Counted from the stretch's first letter, positions 11,715 through 64,000 are shown. The stretch: DNA of 64,000 bases from Escherichia coli (GCF_024502345.1 NZ_JALDNN010000001.1), one strand, 5' to 3'. Translations and numbers: made by a program. Notes: generated by a model from the sequence alone, not told the origin.

Positions 11715-12814
11715 ATGAAATTTACCGTAGAACGTGAGCATTTATTAAAACCGCTACAACAGGTGAGCGGTCCGTTAGGTGGTCGTCCTACGCTACCGAT
11801 TCTCGGTAATCTGCTGTTACAGGTTGCTGACGGTACGTTGTCGCTGACCGGTACTGATCTCGAGATGGAAATGGTGGCACGTGTTGCGCTGGTTCAGCCA
11901 CACGAGCCAGGAGCGACGACCGTTCCGGCGCGCAAATTCTTTGATATCTGCCGTGGTCTGCCTGAAGGCGCGGAAATTGCCGTGCAGCTGGAAGGTGAAC
12001 GGATGCTGGTACGCTCCGGGCGTAGCCGTTTTTCGCTGTCTACCCTGCCAGCGGCGGATTTCCCGAACCTCGATGACTGGCAGAGCGAAGTCGAATTTAC
12101 CCTGCCGCAGGCAACGATGAAGCGTCTGATTGAAGCGACCCAGTTTTCTATGGCGCATCAGGACGTTCGCTATTACTTAAATGGTATGCTGTTTGAAACC
12201 GAAGGTGAAGAACTGCGCACCGTGGCAACCGACGGCCACCGTCTGGCGGTCTGTTCAATGCCAATTGGTCAATCTTTGCCAAGCCATTCGGTGATCGTAC
12301 CGCGTAAAGGCGTGATTGAACTGATGCGTATGCTCGACGGCGGCGACAATCCGCTGCGCGTACAGATTGGCAGCAACAACATTCGCGCCCACGTTGGCGA
12401 CTTTATCTTCACCTCCAAACTGGTGGATGGTCGCTTCCCGGATTATCGCCGCGTTCTGCCGAAGAACCCGGACAAACATCTGGAAGCTGGCTGCGATCTG
12501 CTCAAGCAGGCGTTTGCTCGCGCGGCGATTCTCTCTAACGAGAAATTCCGCGGCGTACGTCTTTATGTCAGCGAAAACCAGCTGAAAATCACCGCCAACA
12601 ACCCGGAACAGGAAGAAGCGGAAGAGATCCTCGACGTTACCTATAGCGGTGCGGAGATGGAAATCGGCTTCAACGTCAGCTACGTGCTGGATGTTCTGAA
12701 CGCGCTGAAATGTGAAAACGTCCGCATGATGCTGACCGATTCGGTTTCCAGCGTGCAGATTGAAGATGCGGCCAGCCAGAGCGCGGCTTATGTTGTCATG
12801 CCAATGAGACTGTA

Positions 12815-12815
<1 letters not shown>
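11715..12815 (+). CDS. dnaN: DNA polymerase III beta sliding clamp
   Basis: 366-aa ORF, ends ...VVMPMRL; immediately downstream of dnaA. Confidence 0.95.
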
Positions 12816-16331
<3,516 letters not shown>

Positions 16332-55928: not shown

Positions 55929-56563
55929 TTTTCCCTCTGCATACTGTTTTGTCGTTTATGTATGCAGGCATGATAGCAAAAATGGCGAGGATGGCTCTGT
56001 TTGCGCCACGCCGATTTTTCTTAGCCCAGACTGGTGAGCTAAATATCTTTAATAAACAGCAGGCAAATCATCGCAATACCCAACATCCCTATCGCCAGCC
56101 AGAACAACGCATGGTAGCTCCAGATTTCAACCATAATTCCGTCAACAGAGCCGGCGATAATCCAGCCGACGCGTGAAGTATTTGCATATAACGTTGTCGC
56201 AGAGCCTATTTTTTCAGGCATCAAGTCCTGAAAATAAAGCATGCCGATACCACAGAGAATACCAAGGAAGATGGCATTAAGAATTTGCAATTCCAGCTCA
56301 ACCGCCGGAGTCGTCGCCATGAGTACGCTGGCGTAAAAACACATTCCACTCACGATAGCAATGAGCATTAATAGTCGCTTGCCAATACGTTTCATGTAAT
56401 AGCCTGCGATTAACATCATCGGAATTTCCAGACCGGCAGCGATACCAATCATTTCTCCAGCCAGTTTATCGGTTAGATGCAGTTCATCAATAATAAATAG
56501 CGGCATATTTATCATGTAGAGATTATTCGCCGCCCACATCATTGAACAAACCACAAAAAGTAG

Positions 56564-57785
56564 CTGTAGATTCAATCTGTCAATGCAACACCCCTTTCAA
56601 TTATCTCTTTCGGTGTTTTGAACTTCAGTGTCTTTCTCGGTCTGTTGTTTAGCTGAGCAGCAACCAGATCTAGTTCATGTTGAGTATATTGGGCAAGACA
56701 TGTCTTTTTAGGAAAGTACTGCCGAATTAGCCCATTTGTGTTCTCATTTGTTCCCCGCTGCCAAGGACTCTGAGGATCGCAGAAGTAAACTTTAACGCCG
56801 GTGCTGACAGTAAATTCTAGATGTCTGGCCAGTTCCATTCCTCTGTCCCATGTCAGTGATTTTCTGAGTTCTGACGGTAAACTCAGGAATTTGTCGGTAA
56901 GAGCCTGATTTACTGAGACAGAATCTTTGCCCCTGAGTCTAAGGATGATCGTATAACGTGATTTTCGGTCTACAAGTGTGGCTATATGAGAGTTTTTTGT
57001 ACCTGAGACTAAATCGCCCTCCCAATGCCCCAGAGAGCGTCTGTTATCGATATTTCGGGAACGTTCGTGAATTGGTGTTCCGTTCACTATGTTAATCGTA
57101 CCTCTTTCGCCTTTGCGGGTATGACGCCTGCCATGGCGAAGGCTATGCGACCGTCGCAGATGCTGTATATTCAGGTGGTGTAGCGCTTCACGGCTACGAA
57201 AGTACAGCGTTTTATAAATTGTCTCAGGTGATATTCGCAGCGTTTTTTGACGTGGTTTTGTTCGCCTTAACCATCCTGATATTTGCTCTGGAGACCATTT
57301 CATCTCCAGCTTTTCCAGAACAAGCTTTCGCAATGGTAAATTTTGATCCAGTAAGCACGGTTTTGGCCTTTTCGCCATTCTGTTGGCTCGGTTATTAGCA
57401 TCAACAGCTTTGTAATAGCGTCTGCCCCGATTACGCTGAACTTCACGTGAGATCGTCGAAGGACTGCGATTCAGCGCAGTAGCTATCGCACGAATGCTCA
57501 TTTTGGCTGACAAACCAGCTCGTATCTCCTCGCGCTCAGACAGTGTCAGGTGAGCTACAGCCCGCTTACGCTCATGGGGTTTTATGCCGCCAGTATCCCT
57601 TAACATAGTGAAGATCGTTCCGGGTTTTGAACCCAGGATATTCGCTATTTCACTGAAGCCTGTTCCGTTCTTCCATAGTTCAAAAACAGAGGCTTTTTCC
57701 TCTGCTGTAAATGTTCGTCTCATTCAAAAAACCTCCGCAACCCCATGTTTTCACATAACTGTTGCGTTGACCAATTGAATCTACA
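56564..57785 (-). mobile_element. IS30 insertion sequence (complete, about 1.22 kb)
   Basis: Terminal inverted repeats (tgtagattcaatctgtcaatgcaacacccc at one end, tgtagattcaattggtcaacgcaacagttatgtgaaaacatgggg in reverse complement at the other) flanked by a 2-bp direct repeat gc. Confidence 0.9.
56572..57723 (-). CDS. insI: IS30 transposase
   Basis: 383-aa ORF with N-terminal HTH and C-terminal DDE integrase fold, fills the IS30 body. Confidence 0.9.
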   Translation of the reverse strand: MRRTFTAEEKASVFELWKNGTGFSEIANILGSKPGTIFTMLRDTGGIKPHERKRAVAHLTLSEREEIRAGLSAKMSIRAIATALNRSPSTISREVQRNRGRRYYKAVDANNRANRMAKRPKPCLLDQNLPLRKLVLEKLEMKWSPEQISGWLRRTKPRQKTLRISPETIYKTLYFRSREALHHLNIQHLRRSHSLRHGRRHTRKGERGTINIVNGTPIHERSRNIDNRRSLGHWEGDLVSGTKNSHIATLVDRKSRYTIILRLRGKDSVSVNQALTDKFLSLPSELRKSLTWDRGMELARHLEFTVSTGVKVYFCDPQSPWQRGTNENTNGLIRQYFPKKTCLAQYTQHELDLVAAQLNNRPRKTLKFKTPKEIIERGVALTD

Positions 57786-58882
57786 GCCGCGTATCTCGCT
57801 TTCTATGGATGGAGGGTAAAATTTCTACGGGTTGGGTAACGACAGGAATATTTCTTTGTATTGATGGCAAAAACAACCAGACTATCAGCCCGCAAACAAC
57901 AAATGCGATGGCAGCGGTGAGATACATCACTTTAAAACTAAATCCCATTGCCAGTTCATAAGCGAGCGGTGGCCCGATAACCCAGGCAAGCGAGATCTGA
58001 GCACGTAAAAATGTACTGAACATGACCGTCTCACGGCCTGTTCTATCGGCGTGTTCACGGGCGAGGGCGAACATTTGCGGGTTTGCGGTGGAAGCAAAAC
58101 TACTCAGAAGTACGCCCGTTGAGAGGAGAATGAAGTAGTTGCGATTCCACGCAAAAAGCGTGCAGGCCAGCACTCCAAATAAGCAACATAGCAGAATCAG
58201 TAATTTACGGTCGCCTTGTTTATCGGAGTGCCTTGCCAGAAATTGACTGACCAGAATTCCCATAATAGCGCTACCGGTGAAGAAAAAACCTACCATTATA
58301 GGACGGGCTTTCAGTTCATCTGCGAGGAATATACTTAGGGTAGGAGTCTGAAGAGCGCCCGCAATACCCGTCAGAAAGGCGACAAGTAAAAATGCCGCGG
58401 CAGTGAGATCAAGTATTTTTGATGGAGTGGTAGCCGTTTTTTGCATTCTTCTGAATCACCGGGCGAAAAAATATAACTGAGTTACAAATAAGTACCAGTC
58501 GAATGAGTATTGTATTAAGAATTTTTGAGTATCGCTGATACAACCAGAAAGCAATGCTAGCGCAATATTATAGGGCCAGCAATTGAGATTATTAGCAAAA
58601 GCATGTTAAGAATTAATTACCGAATTTATATATTAATTATAGTAAGGCAATGAGCTATTTTTGATAGTAAAAATAAAACAAGTTGATTTGATATATTAAA
58701 TGAACAAATTAATCTTGATGGCAGTCTGATTATTGGTGAAGTTTATAGTCAGTTTTTTTCGCCAGCGGTTAAAGAAATAGAATAATCGTATAAAAAAGGG
58801 TGTTCTGGGGCGAGTAAAACAACATCTTCACCTTAATGGCGATACAGTTGGCTGAGAGTCAGCAGGGGGGCAAATCACCTGC

Positions 58883-59003
58883 AAATAAACACGGCGCATA
58901 CTGGCGTGAATATCGCGGATGCGTTCGAGGACAGAAGAACCGACAGGCGGATTCTTCAGCCGCTCATCGTCCATCACAAAACCTTAGACCAGGTATTCCT
59001 GAA
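58883..59003 (-). pseudogene. fragment of a RhuM-family gene (paralogous remnant)
   Basis: About 120 bp with clear nucleotide similarity to 59745-59893 of the intact gene, including a 34-nt identical core; carries a deletion and an in-frame stop. Confidence 0.55.
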
Positions 59004-59214: not shown

Positions 59215-60252
59215 CTACTTTTTAGGCTCTGTTTTCCATTGTAGCAAACCGGCGATATCCTTCTCACCTTCGGCTTCTTTTAAGCGCCGTTGTTGTTCAG
59301 CAAACTGACCATACTCCGCCTGCGCTTTTTCATCGGCCATTTTCTTACTGATTTTACCTGCGCCTTGCAAAACCTCACGGTCGTTAAATTGCAGGAACTG
59401 ATCCAGCTTATCCTGCCAGTCGCGTAAAAAGACCTGCTGACGACGACGGGCCTGATCCTCGGCAAAATCCAGCCACATGTTAACTACGCGGTTAAGCTCG
59501 CTGACTTCATCCTGAGTGAGATAATTTTTTGCCACCGTCACGTCACCCTTACGCACCTCTTCACCTTTATAGCTGGTCAGCCCCATATGTGGCTGGCTGG
59601 CGTCAGCACGCAGATGAATGAGTTCAGCGGCGGTATGTCCGGTACAGGCAAAATGTAACTTGTTCTGGATGGTTTGAAAAAACTGCGTGGTTTCTTTCAG
59701 TGATGGTTGATAGTCGGCGGCTAACGCAAAGATCTCTCGCACCCGTAAATAAACCCGACGTTCGCTGGCGCGAATATCGCGGATACGCTCCAGCATCTCA
59801 TCGAAATAGTCGGGCACAGCCGATGAACCCACGGGCGGGTTCTTCAGCCGCTCATCGTCCATCACAAAACCTTTGATCAGGTATTCCTGGAGCGTCTGGG
59901 TTGCCCACTGGCGGAACTGCGTGCCGCGAGGGGAGCGAACGCGGTAGCCGACAGCAAGAATAACAGGCAGGCTGTAGTGAAGCCTGTTGCGGCTTACCTG
60001 ACGGCCACCTTCCTGTTGAACTTGTAAGTAAGACTTACAGGTTGCGTTTTGTTCAAGTTCGCCTTCTTCATAGATCGCTTTAATGTGCTGTGTAACTGCC
60101 TGGGGAGTGATCTGATAAAGGTTTGCGATGGTTGCCTGAGGGAGCCATAGTGTCTCTTGCTCAAAGCGGCATTCAACACGAACTTCACCGTCATCGCTGG
60201 CAAACATAACAAATTCGCCTGCCGGGGATTGGGTTAAGTATTTATCTGTCAT
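59215..60252 (-). CDS. RhuM-family protein
   Basis: 345-aa ORF (MTDKYLTQS...) with RhuM-family conserved blocks (VISVGYRV-like, RGTQFRQWATQ, LIKGF..DDERLK). Confidence 0.65.
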   Translation of the reverse strand: MTDKYLTQSPAGEFVMFASDDGEVRVECRFEQETLWLPQATIANLYQITPQAVTQHIKAIYEEGELEQNATCKSYLQVQQEGGRQVSRNRLHYSLPVILAVGYRVRSPRGTQFRQWATQTLQEYLIKGFVMDDERLKNPPVGSSAVPDYFDEMLERIRDIRASERRVYLRVREIFALAADYQPSLKETTQFFQTIQNKLHFACTGHTAAELIHLRADASQPHMGLTSYKGEEVRKGDVTVAKNYLTQDEVSELNRVVNMWLDFAEDQARRRQQVFLRDWQDKLDQFLQFNDREVLQGAGKISKKMADEKAQAEYGQFAEQQRRLKEAEGEKDIAGLLQWKTEPKK

Positions 60253-60339
60253 GCCGTCTCCGCTTATATCTGACTCGCAATGCTGTAATCCGCTTAGTAT
60301 GCCAGAAATTCTTGGTGAAGCTTATTACGCAGATAGCGT

Positions 60340-61173
60340 TTATTTTGCGGGCAGCGCTCCCGGATAATGCTTTGCCACAATGTCATTCATCTTCTCCACC
60401 AGGTCCAGACGCTTAAACGTGATATGCCCGTTGCCTTTCTGAAAGTAGCGAATGGTGAACATATCGTCTTTAAAGACCTGTTGATGCGGGTTATCGCGAA
60501 CAAAATTCATAAATCGGATAGAGACATCATGCCGGTTGTCAGGAATGGTTTTGCCATCCAGCAGGTAAAGCATCCGTTCCAGATCGGCGAGCTGATCGCG
60601 CCGCCAGCCCCAGTTCAGACTGAAGCCCCATCTGTCATGCTTCACCAGATTGTTGACGATAATCTTCTTACCGAAGTAACAGGGATTATTGGTTTTGTAG
60701 TCCCAGCTTAACCCTTTAAATACATTGATAATCCCACGTTCGAAAACATCCTGTTTATTGTGGTGGAGTTGTTCAAAGGTACTTAGGATGTTGGCTTCAC
60801 TGATGGCCGGAAGATCGCCCTCTTCGAGGTTTTTAGCCCACTGGCTGCGGGCTTCGGCATCCATCAAGGTCAACATCCCGGACTTCAGCATGAGATCGCG
60901 CCAGATACTGCGATCGATATTGCAGGTAATCACCGGCATCGCTTTATCGACTGGTTGCATCAGCCAGCAGTCAAAGGAATGGCCCTGTCGCATCGCCCAA
61001 TGCTCCGCCACATCACCACCGATGCTGGAGGTTAGCCGTGAGATATCATCAAGCTTATGGATCAGGATTTCTATCAGGCTCAGCGCAGCATCACGCCCTG
61101 TGACGATGCGTTCTATACTGGTTGAGCAAATTAGCTCATTATGATCGGTTAAAACTTCAGCTTCTGTTTGCAT
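60340..61173 (-). CDS. DUF4942-like protein
   Basis: 277-aa ORF from ATG 61171-61173 (MQTEAEVLTDHNE...); family call from memory of proteins encoded downstream of CbtA-family toxins. Confidence 0.5.
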   Translation of the reverse strand: MQTEAEVLTDHNELICSTSIERIVTGRDAALSLIEILIHKLDDISRLTSSIGGDVAEHWAMRQGHSFDCWLMQPVDKAMPVITCNIDRSIWRDLMLKSGMLTLMDAEARSQWAKNLEEGDLPAISEANILSTFEQLHHNKQDVFERGIINVFKGLSWDYKTNNPCYFGKKIIVNNLVKHDRWGFSLNWGWRRDQLADLERMLYLLDGKTIPDNRHDVSIRFMNFVRDNPHQQVFKDDMFTIRYFQKGNGHITFKRLDLVEKMNDIVAKHYPGALPAK

Positions 61174-61287
61174 GATATTTTGTCCGTAAAAAGCAAACAC
61201 GCCCGCCGGGAGTGGCAGGCGCATTATGCAATGAGTAAATAAGGAAGACAGATCGGGAATGTAATTCGGGAAGGAGGCTCGCAAGAT

Positions 61288-61620
61288 TCAGCGTGTCGAA
61301 AGATTATGGCCTTGTCGTAACAACCCCATTGCCTGTCGCGCCCGCAAAATGTCTACAGCCCGCAGATAAGGCGATTGTTCCTGCCAGCTAAATCCTTTGC
61401 GATCGATGCGAACGAGTTCGTATTTTTCCACCAGAAAGTTCACGGCATCGGCAAGAGTAACGCCTGCGTTGATATGTTCCTGAATGACTGTTTCATCGCA
61501 GAATGGCGTGTCACTCAGGGCCAGGCCATAGTGTTGTGCAAGTAGACGGGTCAGTAACATCTGCCAGACGGCCACAGGCGACGGGCATGGCTTCGCTATG
61601 TGTGCGTCCTCCTTTCGCAT
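61288..61620 (-). CDS. CbtA/YeeV-family toxin homolog with atypical N-terminus, no adjacent antitoxin gene
   Basis: 110-aa ORF whose body ([28 protein letters not shown]...AVNFLVEKY...DILRAR) aligns to the YeeV/YkfI/YpjF family; first 12 residues differ and overlap the upstream ORF. Confidence 0.65.
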
Positions 61621-62329
61621 TGCGCCCGTTCAGACCACCTTTAATCAGGTTCTCCTGAATGCGCTGATAGGTTGTCCAGAGGTCACCGGACTCATCCTGC
61701 CAGCGACGGGGAGCCAGTAGCTGAGATTCCGTCACCGGCTGATGCTCTTCGCCAAAACGATACGTCAGCGCAGCTTGCGCCAGCGCCGCCTGTGCTGGTG
61801 GAGGTAGCATGAGTGACTGCATGGCATCGCGCTTCTCTTCTACGCGGTCAAATATCCCCAGCACTTCGTAAGCCCCTTCAATGACCTTCTCTACTACGTT
61901 GCCTTTATGCGGGACACGCACCTCCCCGAACGACTCGCCGCAAATCAACCCATTTTGGCAAACAGATCTGAATAAACCCGGCAGCATTTGATATGAACTG
62001 GAGCCGTCATGGCTGTTAAGCAGGATTATTTCTGGCACTTGTTTGCCAGTAATCTGGCCTTCTCGGCGTAGGCGCAGCATGTGTTTGGTGTGCTCACGCT
62101 TGCTCTGGTCCCGCACTCGGGTCTGGCAGGCAAAGAACGGTTGAAAGCCTTCACGCTTCAGGTTATCGAGCAGAGTGATTGTCGGAATGTAGGTATAGCG
62201 GTCACTGCGGGATTCATGTTTGTCTTCGCTGAAGACGCTGGGCACATAGTGCGCCAGCTCCTCGCGGGTTAACGGGCGGTCACGGCGCACAAGATTGGTA
62301 GCACCAAAACGGCTGGCTAAACGGGTCAT
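61511..62329 (-). CDS. DUF932-like protein (YfjQ/YafZ-like), C-terminus overlapping the toxin ORF
   Basis: 272-aa ORF from ATG 62327-62329 (MTRLASRFG...) with ggag RBS; last 37 codons overlap the toxin ORF in another frame. Confidence 0.55.
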
Positions 62330-62399
62330 AGGCGACTCCTTTAAAAATGGGCATAAAAAAGCCACCCCGAAGGATGGCCTGGATTGAAAGGCTGGATTA

Positions 62400-62849
62400 T
62401 TAAGGTGAAACAGAAGGGTGTATCTGCGATGCAGTCTTTTCTGAATCTGGTATCGGCAATGCAGATAGTTCGGCAGGACTAAGCTTTCCTGCGCGGTAAA
62501 GTTGCAGTTTCACCAGAATCGGCGCTTTTTGCGACTGAAGGTAACTCAGGCACCATTCCCGCTTCAGGACTATCCTGACCGGGGCAGGCAAAAGCTCATA
62601 TGCTTTGCTAAAAACGACTTCAACAAAAGCATCATCACTCAGTTTATCCTCGGCAATATTCAACAGACCATTGATGACAATATTTTCCAGTAACAGCCTG
62701 TATTTGTCAGAACCCGTTACCGAAGCTTTAACCGTGTTTTCCGGTAAGTGTTCAGAAGATGTGTCATGATTTTCTGTGTGTGCTTTTCTGCGTGAGAAAT
62801 TCAGCTTTTCTGTAAGGCTACGAAATTTTCCTGTGCTATTTTCAGACAT
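62400..62849 (-). CDS. hypothetical protein (149 aa)
   Basis: ORF from ATG 62847-62849 (MSENSTGKF...) with agga RBS about 9 nt upstream; co-oriented 70 bp upstream of the DUF932-like gene; no family recognised. Confidence 0.45.
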   Translation of the reverse strand: MSENSTGKFRSLTEKLNFSRRKAHTENHDTSSEHLPENTVKASVTGSDKYRLLLENIVINGLLNIAEDKLSDDAFVEVVFSKAYELLPAPVRIVLKREWCLSYLQSQKAPILVKLQLYRAGKLSPAELSALPIPDSEKTASQIHPSVSP

Positions 62850-63092
62850 CGTAATTTTATCCTGTGGCCTCCGCGTCTTGCCATCAGGCAAGTACGGCGA
62901 GTTTTTTTATCGCTTTAATCAGGCTAAAGGTGGTCAAACCTGCACCTAGAGCCCTGACCGTGACCGAATGGCTTCGCATCAACGTAACCCCCATTACGCA
63001 CAGGACAAGTTGCCACGTACAATCAGGCCATGGGGGGTCATTACCCGGCATGTCCGTAACCACTTCGCTTTGACTATGCACGGAAAACACCT

Positions 63093-63736
63093 CTACTTGT
63101 AGCCATTAGGGAGCCACTGGCCCTGTTTGCGAATATCAGTAATAATGCCCCCCTCTTTGACCGAAATGGTACGCCAGCTTGGTTCTTTGCTGGATGCATT
63201 CCCATAGGTATACCCGACAGTCATTGTCAGGTTTTCGCCTGAAGTTGTGGTGAGATCAGCCTCATACTTAGCTTCGGTATTTTGTTTGCGAATAAAACGC
63301 ACGGTGTTGATTGCAGAACAGCGAATACTGCTTTTCGCATATTCAAAGGAATTGTTAGCCATTTGGCATCCGTCGTTTTTAATTTCATCCGTCAGGTTTG
63401 CAGAAACATTAAAGTTCTTAGGTACAGGGGCAAATTTAGCCATGTCGTTTCGCATAGTCGGTGGATCTGTCTGAAGCACAAGATAAACAGGACAATCTGA
63501 TTTGCCTACTTCACACGCTTTTGCCACGTAATCACGTACTGGCCATCCAGCATTACCGAAATATTCCGCACCACTTTCATCTTTGCATTGTGACCAGGTA
63601 GCTTTTTTCCCCATCATAATGCCGTCTACCAGCACACAGGTGACGGCTTTTACAGGCTCACCATCCCACCGGACTGCATCAAAGGGCTGAATGCCTGTAT
63701 GGTTCACGTCAAGCGTGTAGGCCTGTGGATTCCTAG
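63093..63736 (-). pseudogene. hypothetical protein, 5' end truncated by IS5
   Basis: Reading frame open from the IS5 junction to stop at 63093; the first 23 residues of the track ORF are encoded by the IS5 terminus; no family recognised. Confidence 0.45.

Positions 63737-64000
<264 letters not shown>

Follow-up and report, generated by a model that had tools for sequence, protein, structure and literature searches.

Islands of the CP4-57 type are among the commonest integrative elements of the Enterobacterales, and in the CP4-57 element of Escherichia coli K-12 the slot directly upstream of the DUF932 gene (yfjQ) is occupied by YfjP, a member of the YfjP/YkfA/YeeP group of GTPases, in the same orientation and separated from it by about 90 nt. 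The corresponding slot in the 64,000-nucleotide stretch of E. coli DNA analysed here (NZ_JALDNN010000001.1, hereafter the window) holds a 149-codon ORF, whose nearest counterparts are WP_096252650.1 of E. coli E2 (149 aa, 95% identical, in the same slot and followed by the same terminator) and WP_001254693.1 of E. coli W (158 aa, 86% identical, with slot, length class and terminator likewise in common). Further relatives are 'hypothetical proteins' of Salmonella, Citrobacter, Kluyvera, Yersinia, Dickeya, Pectobacterium and Klebsiella, which do not differ in kind from the window protein; for relatives of the WP_096252650.1 type we found no name, Pfam or NCBIfam model, structure or tested function, and literature searches for the protein itself found no paper. 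The initial annotation of the window had placed the ORF at the head of the island gene string, likely co-transcribed with the DUF932 gene, in a slot that CP4-57-type elements usually give to regulators or a GTPase. The K-12 arrangement agrees with the last of these statements; as set out below, the first is refuted and the second weakened, and the gene is better placed at the end of an upstream operon than at the beginning of a downstream one.

The ORF lies on the minus strand and runs from an ATG at 62849 to a TAA at 62402-62400 (MSENSTGKFRS...HPSVSP), as originally annotated. A mechanical ORF list prolongs it to a TTG at 62891, which would give 163 aa. Homologs in E. coli, Salmonella, Citrobacter, Yersinia, Dickeya and Klebsiella begin at an aligned M-S/P-E-N, a start common to eight genera in all, and the start at 62849 is thereby backed. 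The ribosome-binding site that had been thought plausible is an AGGA motif (Table 1), and AGGA(T) is kept at the same spacing in the loci of E. coli E2, W and HU, Yersinia and Dickeya. The distance to the co-oriented DUF932 gene, previously given as 70 bp, is exactly 70 nt, measured to an ATG at 62329 (MTRLASRFG) that is also the annotated start in E. coli E2.

Table 1. Features of the window around the 149-codon ORF (coordinates counted from the first nucleotide of the window)
Feature	Coordinates	Strand	Basis or remarks
149-aa CDS	62400..62849	-	ORF and translation, homologs, conserved core, dN/dS, AF2, charge profile
AGGA Shine-Dalgarno motif	62860..62863	-	10 nt before the ATG of the 149-aa CDS
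Small ORF, 65 aa, hydrophobic peptide	62884..63081	-	GTG start; stop 34 nt before the ATG of the 149-aa CDS
Secreted-protein gene, 3' 214 codons of 267 aa	63093..63736	-	94% identity to WP_202792631.1 (E. coli E2), residues 2-214
IS5-family ISKpn26-like left end	63737..64000	+	Terminal repeat GGAAGGTGCGAAC from 63737, after CTAG; runs off the window
Intrinsic-terminator-like element	62350..62381	-	AGGCCATCC-TTCG-GGGTGGCT then TTTTTTATGCC; terminator scan
DUF932 gene, first of the downstream string	61511..62329	-	Pfam DUF932, E = 1e-48
cbtA toxin gene, 5'-truncated, without antitoxin	61288..61598	-	Pfam CbtA_toxin, profile positions 10-108
setC, N-terminal part	57781..58446		
IS30-type transposase gene, 383 aa	56572..57723		HTH_38 and rve
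setC, C-terminal part	56039..56575		

Judged by its conservation, the ORF is a real protein-coding gene and not a chance reading frame. Searched against 5.8 billion proteins, its product had 95 homologs at E<=1e-3, all from Enterobacterales (Escherichia, Salmonella, Citrobacter, Enterobacter, Kluyvera, Atlantibacter, Yersinia, Klebsiella, Dickeya and Duffyella), 139-165 aa long and with indels that are all in frame; each of the 95 is named 'hypothetical protein' and lacks any Pfam domain. An alignment of 35 homologs contains 29 invariant and 21 near-invariant columns, with a nearly invariant stretch at residues 50-119 and with both tails variable, again through in-frame indels only; the core motifs of the 139-165 aa family, IVINGLLNIAEDKL ... 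KAYELLPxPVR ... REWCL, are present in the window protein. Nei-Gojobori estimates, with the window sequence as reference, put dN/dS for the core (residues 46-125) at 0.026 (dS 0.94) in comparison with E. coli isolate 12 and Kluyvera and at 0.07-0.12 in comparison with Yersinia and Dickeya, the whole range being 0.026-0.12, as against 0.45-0.9 for the tails. This pattern points to strong purifying selection on residues 46-125 and to fast evolution of the tails, and the reading frame is conserved in the homologous islands where the initial annotation had proposed that conservation and dN/dS be checked. The possibility that the region is a remnant of a larger disrupted gene is ruled out by the uniform length and the conserved start of the homologs, which share the same start and stop region. 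Within E. coli this variant of the gene is rare, being present in 19 of 5,426 complete genomes, always as a 'hypothetical protein' adjoining DUF932; complete E. coli genomes contained no P0099-type variant.

The wider family was sought with a profile search of 1.84 billion representatives of clusters at 50% identity, which gave 132 clusters at E<=1e-3 and 78 at E<=1e-10, most of the 132 being 100-200 aa in length. Named sources add members from Pectobacterium and Pseudomonas, and a copy is present on an Acinetobacter plasmid. A deep alignment of 47 members shows L87, P88 and R92 to be invariant and E67, L70, D72, Y84, E85 and R97 nearly so. Two independent AF2 runs, using the 35- and 47-sequence alignments, gave the same six helices at residues 46-119 with a core pLDDT of about 90, and disorder for residues 1-44 and the tail; the protein is thus modelled as a compact six-helix domain of ~75 residues between disordered ends. 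The signature motifs of the domain are (I/V)xxGLLxIAE(D/E)KLxDD and KAYE(L/I)LPxPVR. It is preceded by ~45 residues that open with a conserved basic motif (M-x6-K-x3-L) and consist of a basic disordered segment at residues 1-24 (net charge +4, pI 11) and an acidic, Ser/Thr-rich linker at residues 25-45 (net charge -3); residues 46-125 form the domain and 126-149 a Pro/Ser-rich disordered tail. The N-terminus had been described as acidic and Ser/Thr-rich, of which the second part holds and the first does not, residues 1-24 being basic. The core carries a charge of +2 and the whole protein has a pI of 7.85.

That no family could be recognised from the sequence was borne out by the database searches, among them the profile and structure searches that had been recommended, none of which gave a credible match. 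There was no match in Pfam or NCBIfam at E<=0.1 and none in PADLOC at E<=1; the sole PHROGs match was to phrog_15338, of unknown function, at E = 0.01; Pfam searches with the 47 deep-family members gave just two stray matches at E about 0.01; and Foldseek comparison of the model with PDB and BFVD gave nothing below E = 0.1. There is no signal peptide or membrane-spanning segment, the top 19-residue Kyte-Doolittle mean being 0.99, and the protein is predicted to be cytoplasmic. A membrane-binding amphipathic N-terminal helix was considered and found to be unsupported by a hydrophobic-moment scan and by AF2. Two remote family members have the domain fused to TPR repeats, and a survey of fusion partners added to these only one likely transposase-related artefact. 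The family is one that has already been sequenced in Gammaproteobacteria, without a name and as 'hypothetical protein' in every source.

The assignment to the head of the island string is refuted by the conserved, co-oriented genes that lie upstream, the small ORF and the secreted-protein gene of Table 1. The small ORF has the consensus TWxLVLxVTGITLMRSxSVTVKALGAxLTTxSLIKxIKKLA with a basic C-terminal end (...SLIKAIKKLAVLA), is called as a gene of 57-58 aa in Yersinia, Dickeya and E. coli-like loci, and has only weak matches, to PHROG 10939 and Phage_coatGP8. An ORF of this kind (57-65 aa) precedes the gene in 16 of the 18 island loci that have upstream sequence, the exceptions being loci L030 and L032, and in most of the 16 a gene for a signal-peptide protein lies further upstream, with intergenic gaps of 14-37 nt. 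RefSeq leaves the small ORF unannotated in E. coli E2 and W. Sec-type signal peptides are present in both the ~144-aa and the ~267-aa upstream proteins, the latter including WP_202792631.1, the full-length E2 homolog of the truncated gene.

The order in these islands is a divergent AlpA-like HTH gene, followed by genes for proteins of ~430 aa, ~144 aa and 267-422 aa, the 57-65-aa ORF, the gene described here and DUF932, and after DUF932 come (Antirestrict), RadC, DUF987, CbeA, CbtA and DUF4942; it is common to E. coli E2 and W, Citrobacter, Kluyvera, Atlantibacter, Pantoea, Yersinia and Dickeya. In E. coli E2 the last four genes of the upstream block stand 19, 14 and 37 nt apart. None of the ~430-aa, 144-aa and 267-422-aa proteins belongs to a Pfam or PHROG family. 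This arrangement indicates that the gene is the last of a tightly spaced upstream operon in AlpA/YfjJ/DUF932 (CP4-57-type) islands. The family-less syntenic block can be seen at 12782-15649 of the E. coli E2 locus (L001), with equivalents in loci L003, L008, L011 and L020, and its 267-422-aa signal-peptide protein is Cys-rich. Islands that have this backbone in common differ in the anti-phage cargo of their flanks (loci L001, L002, L004 and L008): TerY-P with a type I R-M system in E. coli E2, an ATP-dependent nuclease with a UvrD-type helicase in E. coli W, GmrSD with a helicase-PLD protein in Yersinia, and QatB, QueC and TatD with a KAP NTPase in Dickeya.

The junction with the DUF932 gene argues for the same placement. 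Between the stop codon and the DUF932 ribosome-binding site lies a terminator-like element which in the window has a 9-bp stem with five GC pairs, a TTCG loop and the run TTTTTT, and a GC-rich hairpin followed by a T-run is found in the 70-nt gap in all 16 of the island loci read there. The stems are of three kinds, with 9, 11 or 14-15 bp, and in every kind the T-run and then the DUF932 Shine-Dalgarno sequence come next. Among the short-stem hairpins 97.5% of cells pair, compared with 36-65% when the partner column is slid; these hairpins show no double compensatory changes, the changes being one-sided (G-C, G-U, A-U), and a shuffle control is not exceeded. Support for the terminator thus comes from its conserved position and the alternative stems and not from statistical covariation. 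A search of Rfam gave no family in 60000-64000. On the minus strand of 62329-62381, minimum-free-energy folding of the window and E. coli E2 sequences pairs the 3' arm of the terminator and the U-run with the DUF932 Shine-Dalgarno region (AAAGGAGUCGCC), an alternative pairing of the gap that is not predicted in the other loci.

Sequence identity also changes abruptly at this junction. In loci L008, L011 and L027-L029 the protein is 41-58% identical and the products of the upstream genes are 43-75% identical to the window copies (the small ORF reaching 75%), as against 89-95% for DUF932. The gene has diverged in step with the upstream genes and not with the DUF932-ArdB-RadC-CbeA/CbtA string. 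Because of the conserved terminator and this discontinuity we assign it to the upstream block in evolution, and probably in transcription too. The co-transcription with DUF932 originally thought likely is weakened by the same two observations, and would require read-through of the predicted terminator.

The island itself is decaying in this window, where three disruptive events fall within 8 kb: an IS30-type insertion in setC, a deletion of 1,298 bp and an ISKpn26 insertion. From 63737 to the end of the window the sequence matches, at 100% identity, stretches of E. coli genomes that carry the annotation 'ISKpn26 family transposase'. This insertion has cost the 267-aa gene its first ~53 codons, signal peptide included, together with everything upstream of it, and an apparent ORF of 237 aa at 63093-63806 is a chimera of that gene and IS sequence. 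Since ISKpn26 has taken the promoter-proximal part of the operon, expression of the gene may be low or absent here; we found no sigma-70 consensus promoter between the IS and its ATG. The deletion, defined by blastn comparison with E. coli E2 and with its junction at 61597/61598, joins DUF932 at codon ~244 to cbtA at codon ~10, taking out radC, DUF987 and the yeeU/cbeA antitoxin gene and replacing the last ~29 codons of DUF932 with out-of-frame cbtA sequence. The sugar efflux gene setC is split in two by the IS30-type transposase gene. The setC-rhuM-DUF4942-cbtA flank is 99.8% identical to E. coli genomes. In this flank a short rhuM-like fragment (MMDDERLKNPPVGSS...) at 58828-58977 adjoins the full-length RhuM gene at 59215-60252, which suggests a partial duplication or the leftover of a second rhuM copy; at the rhuM place E. 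coli W has a rhuM pseudogene only.

A profile scan of genome contigs (alignment A3) gave only 11 loci, all in Enterobacterales. Members of the family are also found away from the islands. In Klebsiella quasipneumoniae (locus L006, 8001-16320) a homolog with 51% identity stands alone between thiM and an element of ~8 kb whose genes specify an integrase and a replication initiator as well as a major head protein and a head-decoration protein, and that looks like a capsid-forming satellite. A remote member in Pseudomonas putida stands by itself among ordinary chromosomal genes, and in one metagenomic lineage a member lies just after the hsdR gene of a type I R-M system. Because these Klebsiella, Pseudomonas and metagenomic copies lie outside islands, the domain must work without the island operon. 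A phage or plasmid origin was considered and is ruled out by the counts: no homolog in 50,697 phage records, two weak matches in 72,556 plasmids and a single match in 2.9 million IMG/VR viral contigs, this one at a provirus edge. The family is thus not a typical phage or plasmid gene. The circular E. coli record pLR-25_3 (NZ_AP027503.1, 13,989 bp, locus L035), deposited as a non-mobilizable plasmid of 14 kb, carries an island backbone consisting of a 145-aa gene, a 280-aa gene, the small ORF, a diverged homolog, DUF932, antirestriction, DUF987, YeeU and CbtA genes, flanked by copies of IS1 and IS3; the record may represent a circle formed through IS activity, or else an artefact of assembly.

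As to function, our preferred reading, to which we would give a probability of only about 0.35, is that the product works in the cytoplasm as an adaptor that binds other proteins, or as a regulatory subunit, and in islands serves its own envelope operon. Contacts would be made through the conserved acidic AEDKLxDD and YELLPxPVR surfaces and the short motif at the N-terminus; the most likely partners would be the membrane and envelope products of the gene's own operon, and stand-alone relatives elsewhere would bind other host partners. The TPR fusions speak for an adaptor, although they are two sequences only, from remote homologs. On the other side, the N-terminal motif shows no marked amphipathicity, none of the windows at that end ranking among those with the highest hydrophobic moments, and the members from Klebsiella, P. 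putida and the metagenomic lineage occur without the upstream operon, so that the partner cannot always be an island envelope protein.

The position of the gene next to a co-oriented DUF932 gene, with Antirestrict (PF03230) and RadC genes following in related islands, invites the different proposal that it encodes an anti-defence or establishment protein, expressed with the DUF932-antirestriction (ArdB/KlcA)-RadC string and neutralizing host immunity on entry. Its small size and fast-evolving tails are in keeping with such a role, as is the remote member directly after hsdR. We nevertheless consider it unlikely: the conserved terminator and the recombination boundary separate the gene from the DUF932 string, the phage, plasmid and viral counts given above are close to nil, and Pseudomonas has stand-alone chromosomal copies. 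Nor is the protein acidic, its overall pI and core charge ruling out a DNA mimic of the Ocr (T7 gp0.3) or ArdA type; its Ocr score was no better than that of dozens of unrelated helical proteins, PADLOC gave no match, and it contains no Antirestrict domain (ArdB/KlcA, PF03230), which related islands encode in a gene of its own, after DUF932. Were the protein a small island regulator that binds DNA, or a nucleoid-associated protein, it would fit the slot, given that the regulators YfjR and AlpA are nearby in the CP4-57 element of K-12, and the basic residues 1-24 and the all-helical domain are in keeping with such a role, but we regard this as quite improbable: no HTH, RHH or other DNA-binding family was found in Pfam or NCBIfam for the 47 family members, the conserved surface motifs (AEDKLSDD) are acidic and not basic, and the match to RelB, obtained with a single sequence, disappeared when profiles were used. 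A further reading, compatible with any of these, concerns this genome only, and takes the gene to be an intact but silent relic, untranscribed and no longer under selection. The loss of the promoter-proximal part of the operon to ISKpn26, the negative scan for sigma-70-like promoters between the IS and the ATG, the destruction of the downstream string by the 1,298-bp deletion and the splitting of setC next door all point this way, and relative to E. coli E2 there are seven non-synonymous and two synonymous differences (dN/dS about 1.1), all of them in the tails. Nine differences, however, are too few to show relaxed selection; the reading frame, the ribosome-binding site and all core residues are intact; consensus scans overlook many genuine promoters; and transcription can be driven outward from the ends of an IS. 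We hold such silence to be possible but somewhat doubtful.

By itself the gene encodes one more conserved hypothetical protein without a phenotype, part of the ordinary dark matter of genomic islands. The backbone of these islands nevertheless includes a conserved block of four or five genes, this one the last, without any family assignment, and redrawing the transcription units regroups the genes that deserve joint study. The compact helical domain, occurring in at least 132 sequence clusters and covered by no domain database, is a candidate for a new family entry. A larger proposal, which we think improbable, is that the gene and the three or four family-less genes upstream of it constitute an unrecognized backbone module of AlpA/YfjJ/DUF932 islands that, with components in both envelope and cytoplasm, serves the island life cycle. 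Were it correct, two secreted proteins, a small membrane peptide, a protein of ~430 aa and the protein described here would act together, for example in the exclusion of competitors or the exploitation of a helper for transfer, and the six-helix domain would represent a new fold family coupling the module to a cytoplasmic target.

Among PDB sequences the only matches were to RelB and to an inovirus coat protein. Residues 41-95 of the window protein matched positions 22-76 of RelB (PDB 4fxe_A) at E = 0.16 when a single sequence was used, and the lead, pursued together with PHROG 15338, was dropped when the match was lost with the family profiles A1 and A2. The protein has no ribbon-helix-helix N-terminus and no adjoining RelE-type toxin gene, its neighbours being DUF932 and the small hydrophobic ORF, and it differs from RelB in its predicted fold, a compact helical bundle. 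The family profile also aligned 38 positions, covering the linker and first helix, with the inovirus coat protein p8 (IKe, PDB 1ifl) at E = 0.026, and one family member matched Pfam Phage_coatGP8 at E = 0.0085. Relative to p8 the window protein lacks a signal peptide, a transmembrane helix and a basic C-terminus, and has an additional conserved domain of 60 residues and an acidic tail; the likeness is treated as chance, the scores being marginal and neither a transmembrane segment nor a signal peptide being present. The YagK/YfjJ protein of these islands has faint matches to Rep of the inovirus G2P type. As had been stated from the outset, the protein is neither a regulator nor a GTPase by the families that could be recognized: GxxxxGK[ST] is absent, and no such Pfam or NCBIfam match was obtained at E<=0.1. 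Where CP4-57 of K-12 has the 287-aa GTPase YfjP, the window has an unrelated protein built on an all-helical domain of 75 residues without a P-loop, and the slot before DUF932 appears to be a variable module junction.
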